IMG/VR virus record: IMGVR_UViG_3300005512_000003
Length of the DNA stretch: 64,000 nucleotides
Direction: 5' to 3' (one strand)
Origin: a virus
Lineage: Duplodnaviria; Caudoviricetes
Shown here piece after piece: positions 2,017 through 51,500 of this stretch. A program made the translations under genes and the position numbers. Positions within the stretch are counted from its first letter, which is position 1. Every line of letters starts with the position of its first letter. A model generated the notes under the pieces. The model was not told where the DNA came from and searched no databases. It worked only from the letters and a program-made list of their open reading frames with translations.

Positions 2017-3675
2017 ATGCCTACCGAAGTACAATTTAGAAGAGGCACTACAGCGCAAAACAACAGCTTTACTGGTGCTGCTGGTGAACTCTCAGTAAAC
2101 ACTGATAATAACTCGCTGAGAATTCACGACGGTTCTACCGCTGGTGGTTTTGAGTTAGCGAAATCAGACCTCTCTAATACAGTTGGTACTGGAGGTACGG
2201 TATTTGCGGCTAACGTTGGTATCGGAACTACCATTGTAATCTCTGGAGATTTCCAACTCAAGAATATTCAATCTCTTGACGCAACAACAACTGCAACGAT
2301 TGAAAGTGCTGTTGCTGCTGCTCCTAATGATTTTACAAGTCTTAGTATCAGCGGAATCGGAACTGTCGTTGGTGAGTTCAACGTAGGAACTGGAGGAACT
2401 GTTCTTACTGGTCTCTCTCAAGCAGGCATCAGTTCTGTTGGTATTGCAAGTGCTATTCCAACTGCAACGTTAGATGTTGTAGGAAACGCAAAAGTATCAC
2501 AAACTGTAACTGCTGTAGGTGGTAATATCACTGGTGTTCTGACTGCAGTTTCTGCTGTCATCACTGATGTTACTGGTGGTCTTAACTGCTCTGGAGTTGT
2601 AACTGCAACCACATTTGATGGAGAGGTTACAGGTGCTGCTGCAACAACTAACTCAACTGGTCTTCATGTAGTTGGTGTTGCGACGGTTCTGAATCTGAAT
2701 GCAACTAACGCAACTGCGGGTGTCATCACTGCAACCACATTTGATGGTGAACTTACAGGGGCTGCTGTTACAACAACTTCTTCTGGTCTTTTCCAGAATA
2801 CAGGAATCGCAACGATTACTCAAGTTTCTGGTAGTCTGAATGGATCTGTCAACTCAGGTCTTACAACTGTAACAGATAAGTTGAGTGTATCTGGAATCAC
2901 TACTCTTAGTGGTCCAACTGCGATTGCTGGAGTTTCTACCTTCCATTCAAACTCAAGACATTTAGATAACGTCAAGGCACTGTTTGGTCTTGGTGGAGAT
3001 TTAGAGATCTATCATGATGGATCTAACTCATTCATCGCTGATGTTGGTGGTGGTAGTCTTCAGTTAAATGCAACTCCCGATATCAGATTCCTGAATAACT
3101 CTACAGGTATTGGTACTATCGGTGCTGGTGGTCTTGATATCGCTGGTGGAATCACCTTAGGTGCTACAGGTATTGCGACTCTTTCTCAAGTTAAGATTGG
3201 TGCCGCAGTAACTGCTGGTGCTTATGGAGTAGATGTTTCTGGTGGAACTCATATCGGTGCGACAGGAATCTCAACATTCAATCAAGTTGCGGTAGGTGCT
3301 GCAGTAACTGTAAATGCATCTGGTGTTAATGTTGTTGGAGTTGTTACTGCTACAACATCTAAGATTGGTGCTGCGGTAACTATTGCATCACAGGGTATCG
3401 ATGTTTCTGGTGGCACTCATATCGGTGTTACTGGCATTGCAACAATTCAACAGACAATCGTTGGTACTGCTCAAACAATCAACGCTGGTGGATTTAACGG
3501 AACCAATGTTAGAGTTGGTGCTGCTCTCACTGTTGTTGGAGTCAGCACATTTAGCGGTCAAGTGAACGTTGGTGTTGACACCAGTGTTGGTGTTATCATG
3601 ACTGCATCAAATGGAACACGCTACAGACTGATTGTTGAGGATGACGGTTCATTGTCAACCGTTGCTCTTTCTTAA
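2017..3675 (+). CDS. Tail fibre protein with Mtd_N-like N-terminus and internal repeats
   Basis: QFRRGT...FTGAAGEL...HDGSTAGG N-terminus; G/T/V-rich body; internal repeats (TATTFDGE x2, DVSGGTHIG x2). Confidence 0.75.
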   Translation: MPTEVQFRRGTTAQNNSFTGAAGELSVNTDNNSLRIHDGSTAGGFELAKSDLSNTVGTGGTVFAANVGIGTTIVISGDFQLKNIQSLDATTTATIESAVAAAPNDFTSLSISGIGTVVGEFNVGTGGTVLTGLSQAGISSVGIASAIPTATLDVVGNAKVSQTVTAVGGNITGVLTAVSAVITDVTGGLNCSGVVTATTFDGEVTGAAATTNSTGLHVVGVATVLNLNATNATAGVITATTFDGELTGAAVTTTSSGLFQNTGIATITQVSGSLNGSVNSGLTTVTDKLSVSGITTLSGPTAIAGVSTFHSNSRHLDNVKALFGLGGDLEIYHDGSNSFIADVGGGSLQLNATPDIRFLNNSTGIGTIGAGGLDIAGGITLGATGIATLSQVKIGAAVTAGAYGVDVSGGTHIGATGISTFNQVAVGAAVTVNASGVNVVGVVTATTSKIGAAVTIASQGIDVSGGTHIGVTGIATIQQTIVGTAQTINAGGFNGTNVRVGAALTVVGVSTFSGQVNVGVDTSVGVIMTASNGTRYRLIVEDDGSLSTVALS

Positions 3676-13057: not shown

Positions 13058-13114
13058 GGGACACTTGAATAACTGTCACAGGGACCCCGCGGGGTCCCTT
13101 TGTCATGCTATAAT
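13058..13114 (+). promoter_or_regulatory. Early promoter: dyad box, stem-loop and TATAAT
   Basis: GGGACA-N10-TGTCAC (13058-13079), GC hairpin at 13080-13099, TG-C-TATAAT at 13109-13114. Confidence 0.7.
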
Positions 13115-13138
13115 ACATTCATGTTCAAAGGCACCTCT

Positions 13139-13198
13139 GTGATTCAACTTCGTCCTCATCAGATAGCAAGGGTTTCTAAAAAACTGCTAGGGGAATGA
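13139..13198 (+). pseudogene. Orphan duplicate of the helicase N-terminus
   Basis: GTG-IQLRPHQ followed by unrelated sequence and a stop. Matches MLTLRPHQ at 13901. Confidence 0.6.
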
Positions 13199-13202
13199 GA
13201 GA

Positions 13203-13263
13203 TAAATAATAGTGCTTTTATGTGTGGTAACTAAAAGCATAAGGGGCACTTTGCCCCTTTTTT
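13203..13263 (+). ncRNA. Putative small antisense RNA (late promoter core, hairpin, terminator)
   Basis: TAAATA 13203-08; stem TGCTTTTA/TAAAAGCA with an 11-nt loop; terminator AAGGGGCA-CTT-TGCCCCTT-TTTT. 13213-29 is complementary to 13289-13306. Confidence 0.55.
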
Positions 13264-13307
13264 ACTGTCTAAGTCTTATAAATATTACTACCACACATAA
13301 AAAGCAG

Positions 13308-13856
13308 ATGGAATACTACACTTACGCATATTTGCGTGAAGATGGAACACCCTATTATATTGGTAAAGGAAAATACCACAAAGGGTATAAGTATCATAGG
13401 ATGTCGCAGAAACACACTTGCGGTGTTCCTCCACAAAATAGAAGAATAGTGCTAAAAGATTATCTATCCTTAGAAGATTCTATAAAACACGAAGAATATA
13501 TGATAGACTTATATGGATTGATATGTGATGGGACGGGGATACTAAGAAACTTTGTAAGAGATAGTCGTGGTGGTAGTAGAAAAGGCAGAAAACTTTCAGA
13601 AGAAACTAAACAAAGAATGTCCCTTGCGATGAAAAAGCGGTGGGAAAAAGGATGCTATGATAATGAAGAATATAGAAACAAAATATCAGAAAGTAATAGG
13701 AATAGTCCAAGAGTTGTGAAACATAGTGAGGAAACAAAGACTAAGATAAGTAAGTCTGCTAAGGGAAGACAACAAAGTGAAGAGACAAGACGAAAAAGGT
13801 CTGAAAGTGTAAAGAGGTCTTGGACGCTTCGCAAAGCGGCACAGACCCTTGACTGA
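13308..13856 (+). CDS. GIY-YIG-family homing endonuclease with NUMOD3 repeats
   Basis: YYTYAYLREDGTPYYIGKG; conserved R, E (HEEYMI) and N (GILRN); three SEET(K/R) repeats; late promoter TATAAATA at 13277. Confidence 0.8.
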   Translation: MEYYTYAYLREDGTPYYIGKGKYHKGYKYHRMSQKHTCGVPPQNRRIVLKDYLSLEDSIKHEEYMIDLYGLICDGTGILRNFVRDSRGGSRKGRKLSEETKQRMSLAMKKRWEKGCYDNEEYRNKISESNRNSPRVVKHSEETKTKISKSAKGRQQSEETRRKRSESVKRSWTLRKAAQTLD

Positions 13857-13877
13857 GTGCCCTGAGGATGCTATAAT
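13821..13877 (+). promoter_or_regulatory. Early/sigma70-type promoter of the helicase, partly inside the endonuclease 3' end
   Basis: TGGACG-N10-CGGCAC box; TTGACT (13849)-17 nt-TATAAT (13872). Confidence 0.75.
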
Positions 13878-13900
13878 ACTTGTATTGATACGGAGACCTC

Positions 13901-15070
13901 TTGCTTACTCTTCGCCCGCACCAGCAGGACGCTACGGACGCTATGCTGGAGCATAAGAAAGGCACTATTGTTATTCCGACTGGTGGTGGAAAAACAATGT
14001 GTATGATTAAGTATTCGCTTGATTATTTTGACACTTATGACGCTGGCGTTATTGTAGTGGTCGCCCCCCGTCTGTTGCTGGCCGACCAACTCTGTGCTGA
14101 GTTTATGGAGTTTCACACAGATGTTGCGGTATTCCACGCACATAGTGGAGATACCAAGTATTCTAGCAGCACTCGCCCTGCTATTATTCACAACTGGAGT
14201 CAGCAAGCATATCGCAAACAACTTATTTTTACCACCTATCATTCTCTTCCTCGTTTGATGGAAGCAGAACTTGATGTTGATGTAATCCTGTTTGATGAAG
14301 CACATAACTCTGTGCAGAGAAACTTTTTCCCTGCTACGGAACACTTTGCTGCTGATTCTGATCGTTGCTATTTTTTCACTGCAACTCGCCGCACTTCTGC
14401 AACTATCTCCAAGCCTGGGATGAATGATGTTGCCGTTTATGGTGATGTTATTTACCGTGTTCCTGCTCCTAAACTGGTAAATGAGGGATATATCCTTCCT
14501 CCAGTCATTAAAGCGAAAAAGTTTGAGGTTCTTAAGGCAAATGAGATTTCTGCCGACCGTGACTGTAACAATATTATAGAAACTCTACAAGAAAACAGCA
14601 CCAGCAAAGTTCTTGTTTGCGTTAAGAGTGCTCGCCAACTTATCAACTTGATGTCTCAAACTGATTTTGCTACTCAACTGAATGATATGGGGTATTCTTA
14701 TCTTTATATCACCAGCAAGACGGGTGCAATCATTGATGGACAAAAAGTCAATCGTGAGGTTTTCTTTGATACTCTTAATGCTTGGGGCAAAGACCCTTCC
14801 AAGAAGTTTGTTTGTCTCCATCGCTCTATTTTGAGTGAAGGTATTTCTGTTAATGGTCTTGAGTCGGTTATTTTTCTTCGTAATATGGATGTGATTGAGA
14901 TGACCCAAACTATCGGAAGAGTTCTTCGCACCGCTCCTGATAAAACTTATGGTCTTTGTGTGGTGCCAGTGTATTCTCAAGTTGGTATTGCTACGGAGAA
15001 GCGTATGCAGAATGTTGTTGATACTGTTTTCGGTCGTGGTGAGATGCTTGATAGTGTAGTCAAGCGATAG
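13901..15070 (+). CDS. Superfamily 2 DEAD/DEAH-like helicase
   Basis: LRPHQ (Q motif), PTGGGKT, DEAH, TAT, SEGIS, QTIGRVLR. Confidence 0.9.
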   Translation: MLTLRPHQQDATDAMLEHKKGTIVIPTGGGKTMCMIKYSLDYFDTYDAGVIVVVAPRLLLADQLCAEFMEFHTDVAVFHAHSGDTKYSSSTRPAIIHNWSQQAYRKQLIFTTYHSLPRLMEAELDVDVILFDEAHNSVQRNFFPATEHFAADSDRCYFFTATRRTSATISKPGMNDVAVYGDVIYRVPAPKLVNEGYILPPVIKAKKFEVLKANEISADRDCNNIIETLQENSTSKVLVCVKSARQLINLMSQTDFATQLNDMGYSYLYITSKTGAIIDGQKVNREVFFDTLNAWGKDPSKKFVCLHRSILSEGISVNGLESVIFLRNMDVIEMTQTIGRVLRTAPDKTYGLCVVPVYSQVGIATEKRMQNVVDTVFGRGEMLDSVVKR

Positions 15071-15166
15071 ATATATGTGGGCAGCAACAGAAGTCTGGGG
15101 AGATAGATGTTGCGTAAGTCCCACACTTATGTTATACTAAATAGTAATAGTCATCCCCAGACTTCA

Positions 15167-15652
15167 ATGAAAGAATACTACACTTACGCATATTTGCGTG
15201 AAGACGGAACTCCCTACTATGTTGGTAAGGGTAAAGAAGATAGAGTATATAAAAAACATCGAGGACACACAGTTCCATCTAAAGATAGGATACTATTTCT
15301 AAAGAAAAATCTTACTGAAGAAGAAGCATATAAGCACGAAGTTTATATGATTGCAATACTTGGTAGGAAAGATATAAAGACTGGTATCTTACACAATAAA
15401 ACTGATGGTGGTTCTGGTGGAGATACTGGGTATCTTGGTTCTGAAGAACATAAAGAACTTATGAGAAAAAGGACAGGTGATAAGAATAGTTTTTACGGTC
15501 GCAAACACACTCCAGAGGCGCTAGAGCGTATCAGTAACGCTCTTAAGGGTAGAACCGCTTGGAACAAGGATAAGTGCCTTCCTGACGCGCAGGTGAGCGC
15601 ACACGCACTCTATATGAGAGAGTGGCGGATGAAGAACCGTCACAGGGGCTAG
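15167..15652 (+). CDS. GIY-YIG-family homing endonuclease with a NUMOD3 motif
   Basis: YYTYAYLREDGTPYYVGKG; HEVYMI; GILHNKTDGG; FYGRKHTPEALERIS. TAAATA at 15138. Confidence 0.8.
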   Translation: MKEYYTYAYLREDGTPYYVGKGKEDRVYKKHRGHTVPSKDRILFLKKNLTEEEAYKHEVYMIAILGRKDIKTGILHNKTDGGSGGDTGYLGSEEHKELMRKRTGDKNSFYGRKHTPEALERISNALKGRTAWNKDKCLPDAQVSAHALYMREWRMKNRHRG

Positions 15653-21723: not shown

Positions 21724-21755
21724 CATAAATTATTAAATAAGACTTGGTAAAATAA

Positions 21756-23900
21756 ATGGCAATCACCAGAGCGACAAACCTTGCAGGATTGGGAACAGTT
21801 TTTGATGCTCTCACTGATGGTGGAGGTTTGTCGATCTCTGGATTGTCAACTTTTTCAGCACCATTTCATGTTGGTTTTGGTGGAACTGTTATAACAACTA
21901 CTGATGCTGGTTTGGTTGGTATTGGAAGCACAATTCCCACGAGACCATTAGATATTCTTAAAGAAGATGAGATACTTTTAAATCTAGCAAGAACAACATC
22001 TTCAAGTGGAGTCCAAGCAAATCTTGAGATTAAAGCTATAACTAGTGCCTCTATTACTGAAAGAACAGAATCTTTTGGTCCTTCTATTATTGGTAGATAT
22101 ACCGACTCTTCTAATACGGGTCGGAATCTTGGATCTATTATCTTTAAAAGAGAGGAAAGTGGAGTTAATGGTGAAATACTTTTAAGAACTTATGCCAATA
22201 CAGCAACAAGTGAAGTAAGTATTGATTCTACAGGAGCAGTTGGAATAGGATCATCTTCAACTGGAGCAAGATTGTTTGCTATAGATGATGGTAGTAGTCC
22301 AATCGCTGCACCAATAGCAAATTTTGAAAGAGTAAACAATCATATTCCTTCTACTAACCTAGATCCTAATCTTTCTACTTTAAGACTTAAAGATCATAGT
22401 GACAATGTGATCATTCATGCAACTAATCAGACTATCAAACCATTATTTACTTTAAATGGTCAGGGACAAGTTGGTGTAGGAACAACTAGCCCATTTAAAG
22501 GTACAATGGCCAATTTAACTGGATTGGATTGTCATGGAGAACTATGGATAGGGGGTGCTCCAGATTTACCATCAGTACCTCAATATTCTACTCTAAGATT
22601 TAGAAACGCTACAGTTGGGCAAGAATATGCAACTATTAGAATAGGTAGTGACGAGAGATTGTATACTGAAGTTTCTGGTCAAGAAAGATTATCAATAGAT
22701 ACAACTGGAAATATAATTGCAAATACTGGAAATGGTAATGTCGGAATCGCAACTACGCTTTCAAAAATATCATCTTTTACAAGACTTAATATAAAAGGTG
22801 GACTTGAAATATCTCAAGATACTTCATCTAGTTTCTTATTGTCAAGAGAAAGTGGCGGACAAATGACATGTGAACATGTATTTGCTTCCAGTTCTAACTC
22901 TCCAAACTATACTTTTGGTCAAAACTTATTATGGACTGGAGAACTAGCAGGAGTAACAGTAAGAGATGGTAACCCTTATTATGAAAACTATGCACCAGTA
23001 TCTGGAAAAAAAGAGTTTGGATTTATATCTGCAGCAACAAAAGATACCTCATTTACTTCAGGTAATCTCATTAAAGTTTTAGTATTAACTGATGATAATA
23101 GAATCGGAGTTAAGCATGATGATCCAAACTCTGCTATTGACTTGGCAGGAACTGATGATGAAATAAGATGGTATAGAGATGACCGAGCTCGGTATGGTGG
23201 CATCAGATATAATGGAAGTAACTTTATTATAAAACAACCATTTGGAGATAACTTACAAGTTACTGACAGTTCAGACTCTATGATTTTTCAGATTAGTAGC
23301 ACTGGTATTATTAACACCTTACCAACTGCAAATGATACAACAGCAAATGCAGCAAATGTTTTTATCAGCTCAGTTAATGGACAATTAAGTAGATCTACAT
23401 CTTCTATTAGATATAAAACTCAAGTTGAAGATTTAGAATCATCAAGATCTGATGCAATATTAGGATTAAGACCTGTTTGGTATCGATCTACGACTTCTAA
23501 TGATAATCAAAACTGGTCTTGGTATGGATTGATTGCAGAGGAGGTTGCAGAAATCGAACCAAGATTAGTATTTTGGGGACATCATGATTCAGACTATGAA
23601 GAGGTTTTAGAACAGACAGTTGATTCTGATGGAGTTCCTCAGTTCAAGGTTGAAAATGTAAAAATTATTGGTATTGGAACAACTGGGGAAACAGTTGTTG
23701 GTATTGGAACAACATTAGTTCCTGTAATGTCAAAAGTTAAAAAAGTTAAGGAAGGTGTGGAAGAAAGTCCTCAAGGTGTTCAATATGATAGATTGACTGT
23801 TTTACTTCTTGATGTCATAAAAAGACAAAAAATAGAACTAGATGATTTAAAATCAAAAGTGCAAGTTATTGCAACCCAAGTTGGTATTGCGTCAACTTAA
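21756..23900 (+). CDS. Tail fibre with C-terminal S74 chaperone
   Basis: VGIG repeats; STSSIRYK; LRPVWY; GLIAEEVAEIEPRLV; VQYDRLTVLL. Confidence 0.85.
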   Translation: MAITRATNLAGLGTVFDALTDGGGLSISGLSTFSAPFHVGFGGTVITTTDAGLVGIGSTIPTRPLDILKEDEILLNLARTTSSSGVQANLEIKAITSASITERTESFGPSIIGRYTDSSNTGRNLGSIIFKREESGVNGEILLRTYANTATSEVSIDSTGAVGIGSSSTGARLFAIDDGSSPIAAPIANFERVNNHIPSTNLDPNLSTLRLKDHSDNVIIHATNQTIKPLFTLNGQGQVGVGTTSPFKGTMANLTGLDCHGELWIGGAPDLPSVPQYSTLRFRNATVGQEYATIRIGSDERLYTEVSGQERLSIDTTGNIIANTGNGNVGIATTLSKISSFTRLNIKGGLEISQDTSSSFLLSRESGGQMTCEHVFASSSNSPNYTFGQNLLWTGELAGVTVRDGNPYYENYAPVSGKKEFGFISAATKDTSFTSGNLIKVLVLTDDNRIGVKHDDPNSAIDLAGTDDEIRWYRDDRARYGGIRYNGSNFIIKQPFGDNLQVTDSSDSMIFQISSTGIINTLPTANDTTANAANVFISSVNGQLSRSTSSIRYKTQVEDLESSRSDAILGLRPVWYRSTTSNDNQNWSWYGLIAEEVAEIEPRLVFWGHHDSDYEEVLEQTVDSDGVPQFKVENVKIIGIGTTGETVVGIGTTLVPVMSKVKKVKEGVEESPQGVQYDRLTVLLLDVIKRQKIELDDLKSKVQVIATQVGIAST

Positions 23901-25818: not shown

Positions 25819-26145
25819 ATGGCAACCTATCGTTTTCGTGTCTGGCAGAGTGGCAGTGCTCCCTATGAGGTCACTGGTAATGGAATGTCATGGGGATATG
25901 CAAGAGAGAATGTTGCTCGTAGAGAAGGAGTGGATGTTTCGGATGTAATGCCCATAAATGGTAATGCTCCGATTGATGATGATTCATCCAGTTCTGGTGG
26001 AAGTAGTGGATTTGATGCTATGGGAAGTATAATGCTGATAGGAGTAATCCTATTGTTTGGATTGATCATCACATACTGGAAATGGATACTGATTGGTGGT
26101 ATAATAGTAGGAATACTTTGGTGGTGGTGTAAGGACGAACTATGA
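25819..26145 (+). CDS. Hypothetical membrane protein
   Basis: C-terminal hydrophobic helices after an S/G linker. Confidence 0.55.
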   Translation: MATYRFRVWQSGSAPYEVTGNGMSWGYARENVARREGVDVSDVMPINGNAPIDDDSSSSGGSSGFDAMGSIMLIGVILLFGLIITYWKWILIGGIIVGILWWWCKDEL

Positions 26146-26621
26146 AAGAGCATCCAAAATATAAAGGTATTTTTGTATGTCCTGATGGTAGGATCTTTAG
26201 TAACAAAAGAGGAAATCTACGACAGTTGAAACCACAAAAAACTGGATCTAATAAGAAATATAATAATGTTTATCTTTCCATATACGTTCAGTCAAGACCA
26301 AATAGAAAGTCTGTAAAAATACATAGATTAGTTGCGGAAACCTATATACCAAATCCAAACAATCTTCCAGTGGTTCATCATATCGATGAAAATAAGTTGA
26401 ATAATGATGTATCAAACTTGGAATGGGTTACACAACAACAAAATTGTGAACATACTAGATGTAAAAATAAATATTCGCTTATTGACACAAAAACTAATCT
26501 AGTGTATGAAATAACTAACATATCAAAGTTTGCTAAGGAAAATAATCTTGATATTTCTTCTTTGACGAAAGTTATAAGGGGGGAAAGAAAAATCTGTAAG
26601 GGGTTTGTATTAAATGTTTAA
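26142..26621 (+). CDS. HNH homing endonuclease (NUMOD4-HNH type)
   Basis: HRLVAETYIPNP...VHHIDENKLNN.VSNLEW; C-terminal NUMOD1-like HTH. Confidence 0.85.
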   Translation: MKEHPKYKGIFVCPDGRIFSNKRGNLRQLKPQKTGSNKKYNNVYLSIYVQSRPNRKSVKIHRLVAETYIPNPNNLPVVHHIDENKLNNDVSNLEWVTQQQNCEHTRCKNKYSLIDTKTNLVYEITNISKFAKENNLDISSLTKVIRGERKICKGFVLNV

Positions 26622-27480
26622 ACCGTTGCCGCTCTTCATCTGGGCAGGTGGTAAAAATAAGATGCTGAAGCACTATCTTCCTCTGATGCCCACAGAGGTT
26701 GATAGTTATTGCGAACCATTCTTTGGCGGTGGTGCAATGTTCATTCATGTTGTCAAGACATACAATCCATCACGATTGGTCATTAATGACATCAACGATG
26801 ATGTGATGAACATTTATCGTTCGATTGCACATGATTATGATGTATTCAAAGAGAGACTGAATGCTCTAGAGGACCATTATATTCCTCTGAAGAAAGAAGA
26901 TCGAAAGAAGTATTACTTTGAAGTGCGTCATGAACATGCATACGATTATGAGAAGTGGTCTAAACCAGTAGAAGCAGCAACTTTATACTTTTTGATGAAG
27001 ACGGGGTTCAACGGTATCTACCAGTTGAATCAAAACACAAATGGTAGGTATGGAACTCCGTCAGGACTTCTGAATCAAAAAGATGTCATTTATGATCGAA
27101 ATGTGTTAGACTGGTGGCATCAAGTTCTGCAGAAAACAGAGATTCTCTCTGGTGACTACAATAATGCAGTTCAAGATATAAAGACCTTTCACTTCTTCGA
27201 TCCACCATATCGTGACAGTTTTGCTGATTATGGAAATGGATTTGGTGATGATCAACTGTTGCGTCTGATTGCAATCTCAGATTTGCGTGAGAATGTATTT
27301 CTGTGCAATCGTGACAGTGGAGATGGATGGTTTGATGATAACAAAGGCGATCTAAATATCGCACGGTTTCCTGTAACTTATACAGCAGGAAGACGAAAGA
27401 AAACCGATGCAGGATTTGTAGCAAAACCAGCAACAGAAGTTCTGCTCTATCGTACACAACAACACAACCACTTTGATTGA
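26614..27480 (+). CDS. Dam-like N6-adenine DNA methyltransferase
   Basis: WAGGK, EPFFGGG, INDIN, DPPY. Target sequence is unknown. Confidence 0.9.
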   Translation: MFKPLPLFIWAGGKNKMLKHYLPLMPTEVDSYCEPFFGGGAMFIHVVKTYNPSRLVINDINDDVMNIYRSIAHDYDVFKERLNALEDHYIPLKKEDRKKYYFEVRHEHAYDYEKWSKPVEAATLYFLMKTGFNGIYQLNQNTNGRYGTPSGLLNQKDVIYDRNVLDWWHQVLQKTEILSGDYNNAVQDIKTFHFFDPPYRDSFADYGNGFGDDQLLRLIAISDLRENVFLCNRDSGDGWFDDNKGDLNIARFPVTYTAGRRKKTDAGFVAKPATEVLLYRTQQHNHFD

Positions 27481-27907
27481 CATGTTTATTCCTGAAGAAG
27501 AATACCGAGACATCTTGAAAATCATGCCTGTTTTCTGCATGGATTTTCTGATCCGATGCAAAGGAGAGTTTCTATTGATTAAAAGAACTCAAGAACCTGT
27601 AAAAGGTGTCTATTGGGTGATTGGTGGAAGAATGAGGCATCAAGAGACTATGGAAGATCTTGCGATGAGAGTACAAACCAGAGAAGTTGGTCGTTATCTG
27701 GGTCTTGGAAAGACCATTGGGTTTTCTAACTATTTCTTCCCTGAGGTTGAAGGTGCTAGAGCTACTCATACTCCTACATTGCTTCAACTGATTGATGTAA
27801 CGGAAAAATTTGATCCTAAACTTGATGACACCAGTGCAGACTTCATCTGGAGTGATAAACTACCTGAAGAACTGGAGAAGCAGACTCTGTGGTTGTGCCA
27901 GTGGTAA
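27473..27907 (+). CDS. Nudix hydrolase, GDP-mannose mannosyl hydrolase-like
   Basis: FLLIKR..EP.KG.YW.IGGR....ET...A.R...REVG (degenerate Nudix box) and TH. Confidence 0.7.
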   Translation: MIDMFIPEEEYRDILKIMPVFCMDFLIRCKGEFLLIKRTQEPVKGVYWVIGGRMRHQETMEDLAMRVQTREVGRYLGLGKTIGFSNYFFPEVEGARATHTPTLLQLIDVTEKFDPKLDDTSADFIWSDKLPEELEKQTLWLCQW

Positions 27908-27938
27908 TATCTAAATAATTTGAAAGAAACATAGACCA

Positions 27939-28142
27939 ATGAAAACCTTTGGGCACTTTCAAGAAGATATCCAACAACGTAGAGCGGCGATTGCTAAACA
28001 AAGAATGAAAGCAAATGCATCGGATACAGCAAACGCTGCTGAAGCAGAACGCCAAAGGGAAACTAATCGCAATGTCAACGCGATGAGTAAAAGAATCAAA
28101 GACCAAGCAAAAGATGAGTTGAAGAAAGAGTTGGGATTTTAG
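27939..28142 (+). CDS. Small late hypothetical protein
   Basis: TAAATA at 27912; MKTF..F.E N-terminus typical of T4-like internal/head proteins. Confidence 0.55.
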   Translation: MKTFGHFQEDIQQRRAAIAKQRMKANASDTANAAEAERQRETNRNVNAMSKRIKDQAKDELKKELGF

Positions 28143-28165
28143 TGATTATTGGGCAGCATAAGTGA

Positions 28166-28226
28166 TAAATACTGATGCTTATGTTTGGCGACTAGGCAGA
28201 GAGAGGGGCAGAAATGTCCCTCTCTT
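28166..28226 (+). ncRNA. Putative small antisense RNA, same architecture as 13203-13263
   Basis: TAAATA 28166-71; stem TGCTTA/TAGGCA with an 11-nt loop; second hairpin AGAGAGGGGCA-GAAA-TGTCCCTCTCT. 28176-89 is complementary to 28242-56. Confidence 0.55.
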
Positions 28227-28257
28227 GTATAAATAACATCAGCCAAACATAAAGCAG

Positions 28258-28653
28258 ATGGAAGATGTATTTGCATCCTTAAGGGATGTTGTAGTTGATG
28301 AGAGCCGTTTTGTGCCAATTGAGGATGGATGGTCAGGTGATTGGATGTATTTTCAACCAGGTCATACGATAAACTTGGGAAGACCAACATCAGAACCACA
28401 AAAACAAAAAGCAAGAGAAAATGCACTCAAACGCAACGTAAATCAAAAGGGTGCTAATAATAGAAACGCAAAGACTTGGCGTGTTGTTTATATTGATGGG
28501 AGAGAGATTATCATAAAATCTATTCACGATTGGGCACAGAGGAATGGATACAGCAAGTCAGGCATTTACAATCTTAAAAACGGTTTATGGAAAAAGTACA
28601 AGGACCTTGTGGCAGTTGAGGAAGTGGCACAGGAGGCACCCACAGCACCCTGA
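28258..28653 (+). CDS. Homing-endonuclease-type DNA-binding protein (NUMOD-like), no recognisable nuclease domain
   Basis: GRPTSEPQKQK, KGANNRNAK, SIHDWAQRNGYSKSGIYNL (HTH-like). TATAAATA at 28228. Confidence 0.6.
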   Translation: MEDVFASLRDVVVDESRFVPIEDGWSGDWMYFQPGHTINLGRPTSEPQKQKARENALKRNVNQKGANNRNAKTWRVVYIDGREIIIKSIHDWAQRNGYSKSGIYNLKNGLWKKYKDLVAVEEVAQEAPTAP

Positions 28654-28694
28654 AACCGTGTATATTAAGAGGGTCAAAGAAACACACCACACAA

Positions 28695-29123
28695 ATGGGA
28701 ACAAGGTCAAGAATCGGAATGGAACTTTCTGATGGCAGTATTCTCTCAATCTACTCACACTGGGACGGATATCCCTCTTGGTTGGGTCGGATTCTTGAAA
28801 CGCACTACAATACAAAGGAGAAAGTAGTAGACCTCATTGATGGCGGCGACATCTCTTGCGCTTGGTCAGATACTGACTGGAGTGGTAATGAGTGGAGTGA
28901 CTGCAAGTATAAGGCACTCACTTATGAACAACGCGGTGAAGATTGTCCTCCTCGTCTTGATGATTCTCTCAAGGATTATGCCAACAAAGACGCAGGTGAA
29001 GAGTATCACTATGTGTACCGTAAGGTTGCTGGTGAGTATACTTGGGTCTGCATTGACATGCATAGTTTTGAGGATAAGGATCCCGAGACCGTTAGTATCC
29101 CCAGTGGAGCACTTGCCTGCTGA
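28695..29123 (+). CDS. Conserved phage early protein (HWDGYP motif)
   Basis: MGTRSRIG...IYSHWDGYP...LG.IL..HY. Preceded by an early box at 28609-28666. Confidence 0.7.
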   Translation: MGTRSRIGMELSDGSILSIYSHWDGYPSWLGRILETHYNTKEKVVDLIDGGDISCAWSDTDWSGNEWSDCKYKALTYEQRGEDCPPRLDDSLKDYANKDAGEEYHYVYRKVAGEYTWVCIDMHSFEDKDPETVSIPSGALAC

Positions 29124-29198
29124 TGACTACTTTTATTGTCTGGGCATGTATTTGTGCTCTTCTCTTCATTTTTCTCAAAAACATTGCTACTTTCTGAA

Positions 29199-29447
29199 AT
29201 GACTCCTGAATTCTCTGGTGTGTTCCTGACTGTTAAAAATCACGGTGGGATGTATACGGTTTGCACTGAAGGTGAACTGTTTTATGCTCCAATGTATCGT
29301 GATGGAAGTGTAAACCTGGAAGAGTTTGACATTGTTGACTTCTGGGATTCTGAGGTTGATGCTGAAGAACTGGAGGGGATTCAGTCGGCACTGATTGATA
29401 TGATGCAACGTGCTGGTCTTTATTTCAAACAACCCCTGACAGTGTGA
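29199..29447 (+). CDS. Acidic hypothetical protein
   Basis: ATG at 29199 within the listed ORF. Confidence 0.5.
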   Translation: MTPEFSGVFLTVKNHGGMYTVCTEGELFYAPMYRDGSVNLEEFDIVDFWDSEVDAEELEGIQSALIDMMQRAGLYFKQPLTV

Positions 29448-29590
29448 TGATACCATTTACTAAAGAACAACTATTACTCATTGCTGAAGCAGTTGAGGAT
29501 TATGGTGTGTTGGTGGACGAAGACTCTGCTGACGAATGTGGTGAGATTCTTGATACTATTGAAGCATATCTTACAAACTATGAAGATTAG
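29447..29590 (+). CDS. Small acidic protein, paralogue of 31088
   Basis: MIPFTKEQLLLIAEAVEDYGVLVDEDSADECGEILDTIEAY. Confidence 0.65.
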   Translation: MIPFTKEQLLLIAEAVEDYGVLVDEDSADECGEILDTIEAYLTNYED

Positions 29591-29966
29591 TGTGATATAA
29601 TGATAGAATCTCTTAACTTTCAGGGCAATGTTACCACCTTCATTGGCTTTGTTGGCGTGGGTGCCACGATTATTACTCTTGTGGTTGCTTTCCGTCGCTT
29701 TTTCCGCTACAGTTACAGCATTGACAGGATAACCAAAGATGAATGAGATTGAAGTAAATCTGACTGCTGGAGAACTGAGGTATCTCATTGACATTATGTG
29801 GGCAACAACCAGACATGAATCTCAAGCATATGCTGTTCGGCATAACGTCAATGATGTAGAACTTGAGAAGAAACTTCAAATATCTCTGGGAATACTGTTG
29901 GCGGATGAATAGTAAAGAAAAACTCATCTTTATCACTTCTTTTGTTTGGTTTTTACATTGGGGCAC

Positions 29967-30443
29967 ATGTCTGAGTTCTCTCATCATGGATACGGTTATT
30001 CTAAAGAACTCTGTGAGGATGCTACCTCTTGGTTTTTGAGTACCTTTTTTCCGCGACACAAAATTGATCTTGTAATCATTCATCGTGGACTCAGACGTGA
30101 AAAAGTATGGGGATATTGTGACGTGGTTGATGAACGTAAACTGCCACGTCAGTTTATTATAGAGTTGTGTACTTATATGGATGAGGAGTTGTATATAAAA
30201 ACTCTTTTGCATGAACTGACCCATCTGGCACAATGGGTACGTGGTTCGCTGCGAGTTCGTTATGGAAAAATGTGTTATTCTAAAGAACCAGTGGAAAAGT
30301 GGGACTATTGGCATCAACCACATGAGATTGAGGCAAGAGAGGAAGAAGAAAGACTATATGAATGGTATCTGATTGATAAACAAGGTGTACCAGCTGGTAA
30401 GGTGTCCACTGGTCTACCCAACCGCCTCTGCGGTGCTGTATGA
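29967..30443 (+). CDS. Zn metallopeptidase-like protein (HEXXH)
   Basis: TLLHELTHLAQ and PHEIEA. Confidence 0.75.
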   Translation: MSEFSHHGYGYSKELCEDATSWFLSTFFPRHKIDLVIIHRGLRREKVWGYCDVVDERKLPRQFIIELCTYMDEELYIKTLLHELTHLAQWVRGSLRVRYGKMCYSKEPVEKWDYWHQPHEIEAREEEERLYEWYLIDKQGVPAGKVSTGLPNRLCGAV

Positions 30444-35204: not shown

Positions 35205-35457
35205 ACTGATAATATAGAGGGAAGGTGAAGGTTGTGCTCTATATTTTATGTATAGTGCATAGGTTAATCATAGGTTCTAGGTTTAATAAATGGTTAAAAA
35301 AATAGTATAGAGTAATGTATATGGATTGTGTTCTATAGAATCTAGACGAGAATGTGTGTATCATCATATAATCATCATATAAGTCTCGTCTAGAATCATC
35401 ATATATGTCTCATAAAGTCTCGTCTAAATGTGTGATCTTATAGTCAGCTTAGCCCGC

Positions 35458-35515
35458 AGTCTATCAGATCTCGACGAGAATGTCAAGCACACGCGCCCAG
35501 ATTTCGCAGTGGCAC
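35458..35515 (-). promoter_or_regulatory. Leftward early promoter
   Basis: Minus strand TTGACA (35486-81)-17 nt-TAGACT (35463-58), with the dyad box at 35494-35515 lying 30 nt from the -10. Confidence 0.65.
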
Positions 35516-35544
35516 ACAGTCTCATAAGTCTCGACGAGATACAC

Positions 35545-35573
35545 TTGACATCCGCAGTCACATACAGTATCAT
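35545..35573 (+). promoter_or_regulatory. Rightward sigma70-type promoter inside the array
   Basis: TTGACA-17 nt-TATCAT. Confidence 0.6.
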
Positions 35574-36104
35574 ATAAACATCTCGACGAGATGTGCAGAG
35601 GTACGCAGTACACCACAGCGTACATATCTCGACGAGATACACATAAATCCACACATATCACATACAGTCATATACTGCGTACACATAATCTCGACGAGAT
35701 ATGTACATAATTACACATCACATCTAGTACACATATAGAGCACATATACTGCGTGTGTTCTAGTATAGAGCACACAGTGTACCATTGCACTATATTACGT
35801 GCATATATAATTACTGTGCGATGCATTAATGCGTAGCACATGTTGACGAGCACGGACATATCTGTTAGTATACTAATGTATCGCAGGTCGCTCCAATGAT
35901 TTCTTACGCTCAAAAACAAAAGTATCGAATCACCCTGGAAGTTGAGGTTCTAGATGACCCTGACTTCGCATTTGATCCTTTCCAGATTAACTGGTCTGAT
36001 GTTTTGTGTTTAGAACCTGCAGAGGATTGCACTGCATACGTAGAAGATCTATCACGAGATCTTCAGGAAGTATGGTAGGAATAAGACAGTTTTTATAGTG
36101 TCAC

Positions 36105-41063: not shown

Positions 41064-41858
41064 ATGGCAAAAGGATTTAAAGTAAAGACTGCGACTGCAC
41101 CGCAGCAACAGGGTCCTGAATGGGACTACACAGCAATCAAAGAGCGTATGAGGGGCAAGAGCATTGTGTTCTGTCTTCCTGGTCGAGGATGCTCATATAT
41201 TTTTCTGAAGAACTTTGTACAGCTGTGCTTTGATATGGTACAGAACGGTATGAGTATTCAGATCAGTCAAGACTATTCATCGATGGTGAACTTTGCACGT
41301 TGTAAGTGTTTGGGTGCGAATGTTCTTCGTGGTCCCAACCAGATTCCCTGGGATGGTAAGTTGAAGTATGATTATCAGTTGTGGATTGATAATGATATTG
41401 TTTTCAACACTGAGAAGTTCTGGCAACTGTGTGATCTCGCAGTACCTGGACCTGACAAAGACGGCAATCCTCAAGAAGAGCGAGAGATCGCAGCAGGTTG
41501 GTATGCCACCGAGGACGGTCATACGACCAGCGTTGCTCACTGGTTGGATGAGGAAGACTTCCGTAAGAACGGTGGTGTGATGAATCACGAGACCTGTGAG
41601 ACCATGCAGAAGCGTCGTAAGCCGTTCACTGTAGACTACACTGGTTTTGGATGGGTCCTGATCAAGAACGGTGTCTTTGAGAATCCTGAGATGACTTATC
41701 CTTGGTTCGCTCCTCAGATGCAAACCTTTGAAGATGGTAAGGTTCAGGATATGTGTGGAGAGGACGTATCGTTCTGTCTGGATGCAAAGGCAGCAGGTAT
41801 TGTGACCTGGTGTGATCCTCGTATTCGCGTGGGTCACGAAAAGACTCGTGTGATCTGA
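41064..41858 (+). CDS. GT-A fold glycosyltransferase-like protein
   Basis: YDYQLWIDNDIVF (DxD), TGFGWVLIK..VF, GEDVSFC, VGHEK. TTGACA-18-TAAACT promoter at 41012-41041. Confidence 0.7.
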   Translation: MAKGFKVKTATAPQQQGPEWDYTAIKERMRGKSIVFCLPGRGCSYIFLKNFVQLCFDMVQNGMSIQISQDYSSMVNFARCKCLGANVLRGPNQIPWDGKLKYDYQLWIDNDIVFNTEKFWQLCDLAVPGPDKDGNPQEEREIAAGWYATEDGHTTSVAHWLDEEDFRKNGGVMNHETCETMQKRRKPFTVDYTGFGWVLIKNGVFENPEMTYPWFAPQMQTFEDGKVQDMCGEDVSFCLDAKAAGIVTWCDPRIRVGHEKTRVI

Positions 41859-45575: not shown

Positions 45576-48500
45576 ATGGTAAAAAGAGTTAAAATCAGTT
45601 CCGTAATCGAGAGCCAACTCCCTGCATTTGTAAGGGAAGATTTTCCTCGTGTAGCAGAGTTTTTACAAGAATATTATAGATCTCTTGACAGTCAAAGTGG
45701 AACATTAGACCTTCTTCACAATATTGACAAATATGTCAAGGTTGAGGAGATGACAAACCTCAATCATGAGACGACATTGACATCTAATGTCTCAAGATTT
45801 GATAATACCATTGAAGTTGCTGATACAACTGATTTTCCTGAGACTTATGGTCTGATTCAGATTAACTCAGAAGTTATTACATACACTGGAAAAACATCTA
45901 CGTCGTTCACTGGGTGTGTTCGTGGTTTTTCTGGTATTACATCGTATAGAAGTCAAAATAAACCAGACTCTTTGGTTTTTTCTGACACTGCTATTGGTAA
46001 ACATTCTAGCGGTGCAACAGTTAAGAACCTTAGCACTTTATTCTTCAAAGAGTTTTTAAGAAAAACAAAAAATCAAGTAACTCCAGGATTTGAAGACCGA
46101 GAGTTATATTCTGGTATTAATCAAAACCTTTTCATAAAGCAGTCAAGGGATTTTTACGAATCAAAAGGTACTGATCAATCCTTTGAGATTCTTTTCCGCG
46201 CTTTGTATGGAAAGGATGTAGAAATACTGAAACCTAGGGATAATCTCTTTCAACCATCTGATGCTCAATACAGCGTTACTCAAGATTTAGTTGTAGAGGC
46301 AGTTACTGGGGACCCACTAAATCTTCAGAATAAAACTCTGTTTCAAGACGCTGGTTCTGGGTTTGAAGAAGCAAGAGGATCTGTAACCAAGTCTGAACAA
46401 TTCGTAAAAGATGGAAAGACTTACTACAAGTTAAGTCTTGACTACGACTTTGACAAAGATATTAACGTATTTGGATCTCTTTTTGGTGAATTTCAAGTTC
46501 ATCCAAAAACCAGAGTCATTACAGCAGTATCTGCTGGTGCTACTATTCTTGATGTTGATTCAACGGTAGGTTTTGGAACTAATGGAACTTTAGTTATTGA
46601 TAGTTCTGCTGGAACTGCTACTGAAGTCACATACACTTCAAAAACATTAAATCAGTTCTTTGGTTGTGCAAATGTCCCTGATGTTTTATCAGAAACTGAA
46701 GCAAGAACTAATGTTACTGCATATGGATATCAAGGTCCTGGTGCGACTAATCCTATTACTGTCAGAGTTGGTGCAGTTTTATCTGATATTGAGTTTGATC
46801 CCACTACAAATGGTCTTAAAGATAAAGATTCGCTAAAAATTGATTCTCTTGGAAAAAGAGCACTTGATAGCAAGTCAAACAACTGGATATTTAATATTCC
46901 TGCAGTTTATGATATAAAATCAGTAACTCTTGTTGATAGTTCAGACTTTACTTACAGATTCCAAACATTTGATGCTTTAACATTATATGATGGTGATTCT
47001 ATTGATGTATTGACTCAAACGGGTGTTAGAATCACGAGTCAAATAACTTCTATTGAAAATGAGAATACTTTTCAGGTAAGAGTTGGGCAGCAACTTATTG
47101 AAACCCAAAAACACACTATTTTTAAAAACCTGACAAAGGTAAACGCCACTAACTTTCCTCAAACAAACGACAATAACGCAAACGTTCAAAACGCATATCT
47201 TGATGGTAATGATGACCTTTATATTGCATCTCCATCACTTCCTGCATATTTCAGACAGGAGTTAAAGGTAAAGGATCGTTCCATTAGTTTTAGTGGAACG
47301 TATACCGATGCAGAAGTTATTGATATTGGGTTCCATGGACTATACACTGGGGACTCTGTTGTTTATATTCCAGGATCTGGAACAAATAAACTCAATATTG
47401 ATGCTGGAACTTATTTTGTAAAGAGAGTTTCTTCAAACGAAGTATCTCTGTATAGAAGTAGAGCAAATATCTTTAACAATGTCTTTATTGCCATTACTGG
47501 AACGGTAACTGATAACAAGTTTGAGTTGTTTAGACTTTCTGGTCAAACTTTAGAATCTCAAAAGTTAATCAGAAAGTTTCCACCACCAGAAGATAGTCAG
47601 TTTATCAACAAGACTACTGCTGGTCAAATTGGTATGTTGGTAAATGGTGTTGAGATTTTAAACTATAAGTCTCCAGACTCCATTTTCTATGGACCTATCG
47701 AAAATATTATTGTAACTTCTCCTGGTTCTGGTTATGATGTTGTAAATCCTCCAATATTGGGTATTACTGATCCTGTTGGTACTGCAGCGACAGGTTTGAT
47801 CGCGGTAGAGGGATCCTTTGAAGAAATACGAGTAGTTGATGGTGGATTTGACTATATTGGTACACCCGTAATCACAGTAACTGGTGGTGGGGGAAGAGGT
47901 GCTACGGCAGAAGCAGATATGCTCACTGTTAAGCACGTAAATAACTTCAATGCATTTGGAGATTCTGGTCGAGTTGACCTTAGCAATAATACGATTGGTT
48001 TCTCATCATTCCATAAGTTCAGAAATGGCGAGGCAGTAATATATTCTACTGGCGGTGCATCCAATGTTGGTGGAATCTCAACAGATTCTGAATATTTTGT
48101 ATCCACACTTGAGAGTGATACTTATATAAAACTTCACTATACTGAGTCAGATGCAATCGCTGGCATTAATACGGTTAATTTGACTTCATATGGTGAAGGA
48201 ACTCATTCTTTCACCGCAGTTAAGAGAAAGAGAGTTATCAACAGCATTAAAGTAACCAATGCTGGTTCTGGATATAAAAATAGAGCGATTCAAGTAAGTT
48301 CTAGCAATATTAACACATATTCTGATACCATCTTCTCAAAAAATCACGGATATTCTGATGGAGATCTTCTTGTTTATTCTTCGACTGGTATTTCCGCTGA
48401 TGGATTAGATGAGGGATCAAAATATTATGTGACTAGAGTTGATGGTGATAGTTTTAGATTGTCTCCTGTTGGAGTTGGTACTACAGTAGCAAAAGATTTT

Positions 48501-51500
48501 TATTTTACAACCAAACAACATATTAATATTACGGGTCAGGGAACTGGTACTCACTCATTTAACTATGAACCCATTGAAGTTAAAGTAGATGGTGTTATTG
48601 GTATTACAACATTCTCTGGTCAAGATTTTGATGCAAAACTGCAACCTATTGTAAGGGGTGAAATAACTGGGGTATCTTTGTCAAATAATGGTATTGGTTA
48701 TGGTAGCAGTGAAATCATTGGAGACAATAGACAACCATTATTTACTTTTAACAGAGGATCTGGTGCAATATTAGAACCAGTAGTTATTAATGGAACTATT
48801 ATTGAAGTTGTTATCAAATCTGGAGGATCTGGATATAACTCACCACCTTCTCTCACTGTTTTGGGTGATGGAGAAGGTGCCGAGTTAGTTCCAGTTATTA
48901 CTAATGGTGCAATCACCGACGTAGAGATTGCAAACAGTGGTTACAACTATACAAATAGTAAGACCAGTATTAGCATAACACCAGCTGGATCTGGTGCAGC
49001 ACTTCAGGCATCCATTAAGAACTGGGTAATCAACTTATTTGAAAGATCCCTGCAAGTTCCAAACATTACTGATGATGATGGATTTATCGCAGAAGGATTG
49101 AACCCAGAGTATGGTTTGCAATATTGCCACATTTATGCGCCAAGAAAGTTCAGACAAAATGTCTATAGAGAGGTTACTAGACTTGATAAGCAAGTTTTCG
49201 TTCCTGACCTTATCATTGATAGCACAACTTCTTCTGAAATAGCATCTAAAAATCACTCACCAATCATTGGATGGGCGTATGATGGTAATCCAATCTACGG
49301 ACCATATGGATATGATAAAGCAACTGGTGGAGTTGTCAGAGCAATGGTCTCTGGTTATGAAAGAGTAACACCTGATAATCGTCCCCCTGTAGGAAAGTTT
49401 CCAAAGGGATTCTTGATTGATGACTATACCTTCACTGGTAGTGGTGATCTTGACAAGTACAATGGCAGATTCTGCGTAACTCCAGAATATCCAAATGGTA
49501 CATATGCATATTTTGCCACCATTTCTAATGGTGCAGTGGAATCTGTTGGACCATTTAGAGGATACAAACTTCCTCAGTTCCCATATTTCATTGGTGATGA
49601 GTTTAGATCATCTCCGATAGATTTTAACTTTAAAAAGAATTCAAATCAAGATGACTTTGATGTCATTTCCAACAAACTTGTAAGAAATACAACTCCATAT
49701 AACACAAAGTCATCTACCCAAAGGTATCCATATTATCTTGATCCAACAACCATTCAAGAGCACAATAGTGTTATTGATGATGTCAAGGCAGGAAAGGTTG
49801 AGTCTGTTAAAGTTAAAAAAGAAGGTCTTGATTATAAAGTAGATGATATAGTTAGATTTGATAACTCTGGAACTAGTGGAAGACAAGCAGCTGCTAAAGT
49901 TTCAAGAATTAAAGGTGTAACTGTAACTGGAGTTGCAGTTTCCACAAAACAAATCACTGATATTGAGTTTAGTCAATCTGGAAGAACTGGAGTTCTTGTC
50001 GGTTATGCTACTCAACCACATGATTTTAAAAATAATGACGAAGTAACGATCAGTGGTCTTTCAACAACCAACACAGGTCTTCAAAGGTTTTTCTCCATTG
50101 AAGTTCCAAGAAATAGTCTTGTATTGAGGTCTGGCATCGGAACCACTGGTGCAACGGGCATGGTGACCTTTGTAAGCGTCTCTGGTGACCTTTCTGCTAT
50201 CGCTAGTGATGACGTTTATGTGCTTGGTGATGAGAAAGTTCGGGTCCTAAACGTTGACTCCAAGAGTTCTCGTTTGAGAGTTGAAAGAAAATATGGAGGC
50301 ACAACAGGTGCTGCACATACAGCAACAACATTTGTCACCGAAGATCCAAGAAGACTTTTTGTTAATGTTGGATATTCCGAAAAACTTGATCTGTTCCCAA
50401 ATGTCAAGCTGTATTTTGATCCAAAAGAAACGTTTGCACAACAATCTGTAGGAGTTGCATCAACTAACATTGTTTCAGTTTCTTTTGCAAATCCAGGTTC
50501 TGGTGCAACATCTGTCTCTTTAACTGCATCACAACTTTACATTCCAAATCACGGATTGAGAACTAACAGTAAGTTACTCTATAATGCAAATGGTTCAGAT
50601 GGAATCAGAGTTTCACTTGCTCTCACATCTCAGTTTGGAACTGGATTTAACGTTGGATTCAATACATTTACTCTTGCAGATAACTCCATAGTATATGCTG
50701 CAAGATTCTCTAATGATATTATTGGCATCGCTACAAATCCTATTGTTACAAATAATGCTGGAGGATTTGTTGGAATCGGATCCACAACACAAGGATTATT
50801 ATTCTTTGAGGGTTATGGGTCAGGAGATAAGCATAGTTTAGTAACCGATTATTCCAATACACTTTCTGGACTGATTAATAGAAATGTTGTAACTGTTTCT
50901 ACAGCATCAACTCATAACTTGGTTGCAAATGAAACTGTAAAACTTGACGTTTTCCCAGGAATAACAACAACTATCAAGTTGTCTTATAATGAAGTAGCAA
51001 GAAGAGTCGTTGGAAACAGACTTAACTTTGTTAAAACTGCGGTTGATTTGCTTGAGAATACAATAACGATTGAAAATCATGGATTTGTAACAGGACAAAA
51101 AGTAATATATCAATCTGCACTTTCATCTGCAGATAGAATTATTGATTCAGATACTACTGTTGATGTACCTACCGTTTTCCCATCTCCTCTTGAGGTAGAA
51201 AAACCATTTACTCTTAGGGCAACATTAAATGGTGTTATTATTGTTGACGCTGATGCTATTCCTAGCAACAGCATCTTCTACGTTGTTGTTGAAGACTACA
51301 ATACGATTAAACTTGCATCTACTTATTACAATGCAGTAAAGAGCAATCCAGAAATTGTTGATATGATCTCCAATACTTTTGGTGATCTTGCTCCTATCAA
51401 TCCTCCTGTCGCACTTATTAGAAATCAAACTGTAGAGTTTGATCTTTCAGATTCTTCATTGTCTTACAGAAGAGGATCTATTGATTATCCTGCATTTGAG

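Follow-up and report, generated by a model that had tools for sequence, protein, structure and literature searches.

A portable RNA cassette with a long-range helix and an embedded late-promoter box upstream of homing-endonuclease-type genes in a marine T4-like phage

The 64,000-nt viral DNA stretch analysed here (IMG/VR record IMGVR_UViG_3300005512_000003, hereafter the window) contains, directly upstream of a gene for a 131-aa protein, a cassette of two hairpins and two late-promoter-like boxes (28164-28653; copy 3 of three copies in the window). The first hairpin of this cassette is complementary to the leader of the gene that follows. The locus thus raises the question of how this complementarity is used: by folding within one transcript, by a separate small RNA acting in trans, or as an inverted repeat in the DNA itself. 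We consider it probable that the cassette is a portable expression-control unit of free-standing homing-endonuclease genes in T4-like cyanophages, in which the translation start is masked in cis and a late promoter lies between the two pairing arms. Copy 3 is composed of the following elements.

28164-28171, + strand: P1, a late-promoter-like box, GATAAATA; its TAAATA begins at 28166 and is invariant in every intact cassette
After 28171, + strand: 4-nt gap, CTGA, between P1 and hairpin 1
28176-28198, + strand: hairpin 1 (hp1), stem TGCTTA (28176-28181) / TAGGCA (28193-28198) with one G.U pair, 11-nt loop TGTTTGGCGAC (28182-28192)
28176-28189, + strand: 5' arm of the long-range helix, made up of the 5' half of hp1 and 8 loop bases; pairs with 28242-28256
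28199-28226, + strand: hairpin 2 (hp2), GC-rich and terminator-like, 12 pairs with a GAAA cap, followed by a broken U-run, CUCUCUUG
28228-28235, + strand: P2, a perfect T4-type consensus late promoter, TATAAATA, between the two arms; invariant in all cassettes
28242-28257, + strand: leader, consisting of the 3' arm GCCAAACATAAAGCA (28242-28256, positions -16 to -2 before the start codon) and a final G
28258-28653, + strand: 131-aa open reading frame (ORF), ATG at 28258, for an endonuclease-type DNA-binding module without nuclease domain and with a new 38-aa N-terminus

An earlier description made from the letters alone (the sequence-only reading) had named these elements between 28166 and 28653. 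All of them were located as described, base for base; only the leader coordinates that it implied were off by one base. The complementarity between the leader and the 5' half and loop of hp1 ends one base before the ATG at 28258, and the P2 box lies 3-6 nt before the 3' arm across cassettes. The geometry of copy 3 indeed matches that of copy 1, a second cassette in the window, and the loop changes between both copies are mirrored in their leaders.

When 28150-28275 was folded as one RNA, it reached -46.2 kcal/mol (z = -6.1), and none of 200 shuffled sequences was as good. The minimum-energy structure does not consist of two separate hairpins but of a long-range helix (28180-28189 / 28243-28252) that encloses hp2 and P2. 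Duplex prediction for arm and leader gave 14 pairs with one bulged A (-19.6 kcal/mol), spanning positions -16 to -2. An RNA begun after P2 (28242-28300) has an unstructured leader (z = -0.2), and the upstream half alone (28174-28236) folds into hp1 and hp2 (-26.8 kcal/mol, z = -5.3).

To place copy 3 among its relatives, we collected cassettes from viral contigs by two routes. Relatives of the 131-aa protein are encoded on 35 contigs, nearly all of which have the cassette directly upstream, and a covariance model comprising the long-range helix and hp2 found 39 cassettes in the window and these loci. A DNA pattern scan returned at least 118 stretches; 80 of these loci were scanned with the covariance model and yielded 47 cassettes. 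Both sets combined hold at least 65 distinct cassette versions in marine viral contigs. With the pattern TATAAATA-N12-22-AAAGCAGATG, 32 of the 66 distinct matches in viral contigs were chance occurrences, located inside coding DNA and forming weak duplexes. The cognate arm-leader duplex had 14-18 bp in every cassette and a mean energy of -22.1 +/- 1.4 kcal/mol, as compared to -11.7 +/- 4.2 kcal/mol for non-cognate combinations.

The complementarity is confined to one class of genes. Among 68 pairs of a TAAATA box and a gene from the window and the surveyed loci, all 33 endonuclease-family genes showed duplexes of -19 kcal/mol or better, while all 35 ordinary late genes were at -16 kcal/mol or weaker.

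The arm-leader pairing is strongly selected. In a first covariation set with 31 distinct rows, pairing reached 98% and 92% in the two halves of the long-range helix, with double changes at 13 of the 16 pairs. The covariation score was 0.586, against 0.09-0.17 when the partners were slid by 1-3 columns, and none of 500 shuffles reached it. An independently fetched second set (38 distinct rows) gave 99% and 94% pairing and, again, double changes at 13 of 16 pairs. Fitting the alignments to the covariance model gives the structure an advantage; the same result is seen in the slid controls and in the raw sequences. The proposal that the pairing is under selection is therefore supported by compensatory changes in two datasets, and a chance palindrome is ruled out by this covariation together with the folding z-scores.

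The balance of G.U and A.C combinations indicates the molecule on which selection acts. G.U combinations outnumber A.C combinations by 22 to 6 in the long-range helix and by 69 to 11 in hp2, and this excess argues for selection on the RNA of the + strand. A palindrome that matters only as DNA is ruled out by the asymmetry. It seems very unlikely more generally that the inverted repeat acts at the DNA level, be it as an operator around the late promoter that is bound by the gene product, resulting in autorepression as in I-TevI, or as a recombination or homing signal. There is some appeal to this idea: I-TevI represses its own late promoter via an overlapping operator (PMC2988022), the cargo of copy 3 is a DNA-binding module, and the variable cores flank the promoter. 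However, in addition to the strand-specific G.U excess, the conserved one-base bulge is confined to the 3' arm, one and the same core precedes proteins that differ in their N-terminal domains, and the covarying 3' half of hp1 constitutes a third element for which a two-arm operator has no place.

The bases that pair are identical for a small RNA acting in trans and for a long-range helix within one transcript, and covariation is therefore blind to the difference. We rank masking in cis first on account of the minimum-energy fold, the precedents in T4 and in ocean metagenomes, the sigma-70-like neighbours and the plain design of copy 2. According to this model, transcripts that enter from upstream, whether they originate in the early-type genes nearby or at the 28164 box, would carry the 5' arm (28176-28189), and the majority of them should stop at the GC hairpin hp2. 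In RNA that reads through, the 5' arm would fold onto the leader (28242-28256) and hide positions -16 to -2, so that ribosomes could not start. Late transcripts from P2 would start about 6 nt after the box and carry the 3' arm only, which would leave the leader open for translation. The gene would thus be silent early and in read-through RNA, and its product would appear only late and at a limited level. The genes around the cassette have sigma-70-like promoters, so that read-through RNA in need of silencing is to be expected.

A plain form of the design, two arms with a late-promoter box between them, is found in copy 2 of the window and in one further locus (L030). The two other copies are:

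13201-13310, + strand: copy 1, the same cassette before a GIY-YIG gene (13308-13856); 71.1 bits with the covariance model, hp2 flagged as terminator-like
15090-15169, + strand: copy 2, simpler and of another sequence family, before a second GIY-YIG gene (ATG at 15167); -31.3 kcal/mol, z = -4.8

The arms of copy 2 are 12 nt each, GAAGTCTGGGGA (15090-15101) and TCCCCAGACTTC (15154-15165), with a ACTAAATA box (15136-15143) between them; there is neither an upstream box nor a terminator hairpin. In its relative (L030:421-509), the conserved flanks are kept, and the arms are different yet still complementary. In both members of this family (15077-15169 and L030:421-509), the order is GTGGGCAGCAACA, variable arm, GTAAGTCCCAC, late box, complementary arm, ATG. 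A GTGGG and a CCCAC in this family could form an alternative local stem.

Precedents for masking in cis come from T4-like phages. In the I-TevI, I-TevII, I-TevIII, segB and Aeh1 mobE genes, a stable structure hides the ribosome site on upstream RNA, and a late promoter is placed so that the late RNA cannot form this structure; the hairpin/late-promoter device is shared by T4 genes such as e and soc (PMC2988022). The present cassette shares with this T-even control the start-hiding helix on the upstream RNA, the late promoter that omits the 5' arm and the association with homing-endonuclease genes. It differs in having a long-range helix around a terminator-like hairpin, with a second late-type box and the self-folding hp1 in front, in lacking a clear Shine-Dalgarno sequence and, for copy 3, in its nuclease-less cargo (PMC2988022).

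Closer still are loci from the ocean. In cyanophage-like ocean metagenome loci, the text of Dassa et al. 2009 (PMC2677866) describes such 5' untranslated-region hairpins for 15 of 16 free-standing endonuclease genes; 10 of these hairpins include TATAAATA, and two conserved motifs are mutually complementary in the stem. These 'fractured gene' loci resemble ours in the cyanophage-like marine DNA, the GIY-YIG genes, the hairpin with an embedded late promoter and the two pairing motifs, and the cassette very probably belongs to the same family, as judged from that text. That text makes no mention of an upstream box, a first hairpin that forms independently, a terminator, statistics on covariation or cargo without a nuclease. 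PeSL cassettes of T4-like phages (PMC2839356, PMC4122927) are also short conserved units of stem-loop and promoter; they recur in the intergenic spaces of variable regions, where they mark the borders of modules. Their promoters are early ones, however, and they show no complementarity to the leader downstream.

Several points weigh against masking in cis as a complete account. The promoter activity of both boxes, the terminator and the block to translation are all deduced from sequence. The leader ends in ...CATAAAGCAG-ATG and has no GGAG-type site, so that a clear Shine-Dalgarno sequence is missing, and the AUG itself is unpaired. The invariant TAAATA, 4-5 nt before hp1 in all intact cassettes, would be superfluous for masking, and the same is true for the 3' half of hp1 despite its covariation with the 5' half. 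If the terminator between the arms worked efficiently, few RNAs would contain both of them. Finally, the plain design of copy 2 shows that none of these extra features is required for masking.

Two mutually exclusive, covarying pairings of one 5' arm and a promoter-like box in front of it are what a tandem small-RNA regulator would be expected to look like. It is conceivable, though on balance doubtful, that the box at 28164 makes a putative RNA of about 55 nt, composed of hp1 and the terminator hp2, the loop and 5' stem half of which would pair in trans with the leader of the P2 message and limit or delay its translation. Divergent cores would then prevent cross-talk, and such an RNA could act together with masking in cis. 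Antisense RNAs of type I toxin-antitoxin systems such as IstR-1/tisB are comparable: they are short, have their own promoter and terminator, and are complementary to the site where translation starts in an adjacent gene that is potentially harmful. Here, the putative RNA would be arranged in tandem with its target, directly upstream of it and on the same strand, and the cargo of copy 3 shows no sign of toxicity.

Part of the evidence for a separate RNA comes from the upstream box. TAAATA is invariant and stands at a fixed distance of 4-5 nt from hp1 in all intact cassettes, and the sole mutated box among the 34 cassettes of the pattern set is found in L111, before an endonuclease gene cut to 5 codons. 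In this locus (L111:4340-4437), the upstream box reads TAATAT instead of TAAATA, and the endonuclease ORF consists of MEYYT followed by a stop. The box of copy 1 is located in inserted DNA and follows the stop of an orphaned helicase start (MFKGTSVIQLRPHQ...) by two bases, which indicates that it is borne by the cassette. In the window, NNTAAATA is the ordinary box found 19-37 nt before many structural-gene starts (37 occurrences on the + strand versus 9 on the - strand), and NATAAATA has been published as the late promoter of cyanomyoviruses (PMC2984593). The upstream box thus looks like an ordinary late promoter, whereas the second box always has the full consensus. On the other hand, the stop codon of the upstream gene is often contained in the box or next to it; in 10 of 31 cassettes the two coincide exactly.

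The hairpins themselves were also consistent with an RNA gene. hp1 covaries by itself, with double changes in 3 of 5 pairs and 82.6% of cells paired in the covariance-model alignment; stem variants include GCTTA/TAAGC, CCTGA/TCAGG and CTCTAA/TTAGAG. (MAFFT with RNAalifold recovered hp2 only and not hp1, which is why hp1 was tested on the covariance-model alignment.) Taken together with the long-range covariation, this means that the 5' arm has two mutually exclusive partners, both selected. A run of at least four T follows hp2 in 57 of the 65 cassettes, and the free upstream RNA folds well (z = -5.3 and -4.1). Box, hairpin and terminator therefore resemble a gene that encodes an RNA of about 55 nt. 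In copy 3, however, the U-run is 2, the shortest among the 65 cassettes, and a terminator scan flagged copy 1 but not copy 3. Because of this poor U-run and unflagged terminator, an RNA from P1, if made, would mostly read through and act in cis. Covariation of the long-range helix is equally expected under masking in cis. Three Logan contigs were checked for transcript ends; all of them carry upstream genes, and no ends were seen.

The sequence-only reading had also held that each RNA is specific for its own gene. This stands as a calculation only: the computed gain from forming the trans complex was -11.7 kcal/mol for copy 3 and -14.6 kcal/mol for copy 1, but -4.8 and -4.9 kcal/mol for the two cross pairs in the window. 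Cassettes on the same contig all have different cores, as would be required to avoid cross-talk. Yet this difference is not significant by our own estimate (about 8 pairs, with about 1 identical pair expected), and differing cores would also result from selection against repeats.

In its fuller version, which we regard as tentative, the trans model describes a small-RNA gene (late box, hairpin and terminator) fused head-to-tail to its own target (late promoter, complementary leader and gene). This would be a built-in governor that moves with homing endonucleases, and diverged cores would let several cassettes coexist without cross-talk. The unit would have been kept for nuclease-less DNA-binding proteins with a conserved N-terminal peptide, perhaps with a new function, for example in protecting sites or in repression. 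A tandem small-RNA regulator of this kind is not described in the literature on T4-like phages cited here.

Homing endonucleases cut DNA, so the phages that carry them must restrain them, and a compact movable unit with at least 65 variants before many types of genes would be a way in which marine cyanophages achieve this. The masking helix is textbook T4 biology and had already been noted in ocean metagenomes; seen in this light, copy 3 adds little. The kind of control is thus a known one, to which an additional layer in trans may, less probably, have been added.

Copies 1 and 2 precede GIY-YIG genes; the product of the gene controlled by copy 3 is homologous only to the DNA-binding half of such enzymes. 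The 131-aa protein had nothing meaningful in Pfam or PHROGs. No nuclease family matched, in agreement with the claim that it lacks a GIY-YIG or HNH domain, and the Pfam families NUMOD1, NUMOD3 and I-HmuI_NUMOD-like gave no match at E <= 0.1. BLASTP against the two GIY-YIG proteins of the window found no match, and a profile search of PDB sequences reached only E = 0.5-0.6. The family alignment was more informative. The protein has 45 metagenomic homologues, from marine metagenomes, and its residues 39-131 align with the C-terminal half of GIY-YIG proteins of about 190 aa (codons ~98-193 of those genes), with 47-54% identity. The GIY-YIG relatives that align to this part begin with MEYYTYAYLREDGTPYY.GKG and comprise P0039 and the products of L009, L011 and L017. 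Longer homologues carry NUMOD3 or HNH.

The AlphaFold model had a mean pLDDT of 70.7, with about 85 in the C-terminal beta-beta-alpha-alpha-beta part. Foldseek matches were weak, the top one being I-HmuI 1u3e (E = 0.026, TM 0.37), with the I-TevI DNA-binding domain 1i3j at rank 27; the nearest protein Atlas clusters are NUMOD families, which we take as a lead only. As in the NUMOD-type modules of GIY-YIG and HNH endonucleases such as I-TevI and I-HmuI, residues 39-131 belong to a homologous DNA-binding part, and I-HmuI is the best structural match; the difference is that the catalytic domain has been replaced by a family-conserved N-terminus of 38 aa. These first 38 residues are conserved among the homologues. 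They could have been the frameshifted remnant of a GIY-YIG domain, but this was ruled out because the 5' 143 nt of the ORF have no nucleotide similarity to GIY-YIG genes. 'Nuclease-less NUMOD-type protein' is thus a fair description of what appears to be the NUMOD-type DNA-binding half of a GIY-YIG endonuclease that has lost its nuclease and acquired a new N-terminus. Nothing speaks for the suggested function as a toxin.

Copy 3 is not an isolated case. By our own tally, about 18 of the 65 cassettes drive short proteins that combine the DNA-binding half with a conserved new N-terminal peptide, and similar short N-terminal peptides (MEDxFxxL..., MKEFLEGL...) are found at the start of further nuclease-less proteins whose C-terminal parts differ. 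Four loci (L082:6448-6786, L103:2512-2991, L104:9479-9736 and L102:10871-11380) encode short cassette-driven proteins with a shared N-terminal peptide of the form M-E/K-E/D-x-F/W-L...P.PSEF or ...EDGW and differing C-termini, which suggests that the peptide is a module in its own right.

The sequence-only reading had called the module portable, and this was borne out: the cassette precedes several GIY-YIG subfamilies, one HNH protein, and other endonuclease-like as well as several nuclease-less proteins. Cultured carriers are the Synechococcus phage B3 and also B23 (Kyanoviridae). In B3, the cassette lies at about 41444-41545 of the record, before gp45 (L055:2596-3219, MN695334.1), which is annotated as 'translation initiation factor 2'. 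The protein starts with MNYYTYAYL...YYIGKG and by its sequence is a GIY-YIG homing endonuclease.

The surroundings of two cassettes deserve a description. Copy 1 lies within the 5' end of a helicase gene (13071-13930). An orphan helicase start of 25 codons (13121-13198, ...IQLRPHQ...) stops two bases before the cassette. On the 3' side of the copy 1 endonuclease gene, there is a second TGCTATAAT promoter-like motif near 13870, followed by a recoded start (...LTLRPHQ...) and the intact helicase (~13901-15070). The other case is a half cassette (L018:1578-1637; box, first hairpin and 5' half of the second) that lies directly before a Dam-type methylase gene. Its second hairpin is broken, it is without the second promoter, and the 6.3-kb locus contains no cognate leader. 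It was the sole match in a search for free-standing small-RNA-like halves, and was rejected as an orphan RNA gene due to the broken hairpin and the lack of a cognate leader nearby; by its sequence, it looks like the deletion scar of a lost endonuclease gene. We also attempted an empty-site comparison using the downstream phrog_1987 gene, but the borders of the cassette were not readable because the upstream context differs in every contig.

As to the origin of the DNA, every long ORF of the window lies on the + strand, T4-type baseplate wedge proteins are among the products, and the nearest database relatives are Synechococcus and Pelagibacter myoviruses. Based on these two features and on the homologues from marine metagenomes, the window belongs to a marine T4-like myovirus, most probably a cyanophage. 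A Megablast comparison of 26000-30000 with cultured phages gave no match, and an exact 37-mer was absent from the viral contigs. A tRNA scan found zero tRNAs, and no Rfam family reached its gathering threshold anywhere in the 64-kb window.

Further observations were made in other parts of the window. Immediately downstream of the 131-aa ORF, a motif GTATATTA-AGAG-GTCAAAG-AACAC (in 28655-28694) stands just before a gene for a 142-aa protein and recurs upstream of the phrog_1987 gene in L042, L043, L044 and L053. In some contigs it is preceded by a GC hairpin with a T-run, resembling the promoter-terminator units of PeSLs. A 37-nt imperfect inverted repeat (21745-21860) extends over the start of a 714-aa ORF (21756-23900) and forms the strongest upstream-start duplex in a scan of the window (-28.4 kcal/mol). 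The gene-free block 35340-35900 contains several near-perfect inverted repeats, for example 35620-35638 / 35688-35706 (95% complementary). The 552-aa protein encoded at 2017-3675 resembles the N-terminus of the Mtd tail protein of Bordetella phage BPP-1 in its first ~50 residues (62% identity) and is unlike it in the remainder; its N-terminus is also similar to a baseplate protein of Pelagibacter phage HTVC008M (72%). Finally, a single ORF of 4331 codons (45576-58571) lies between the baseplate wedge genes.

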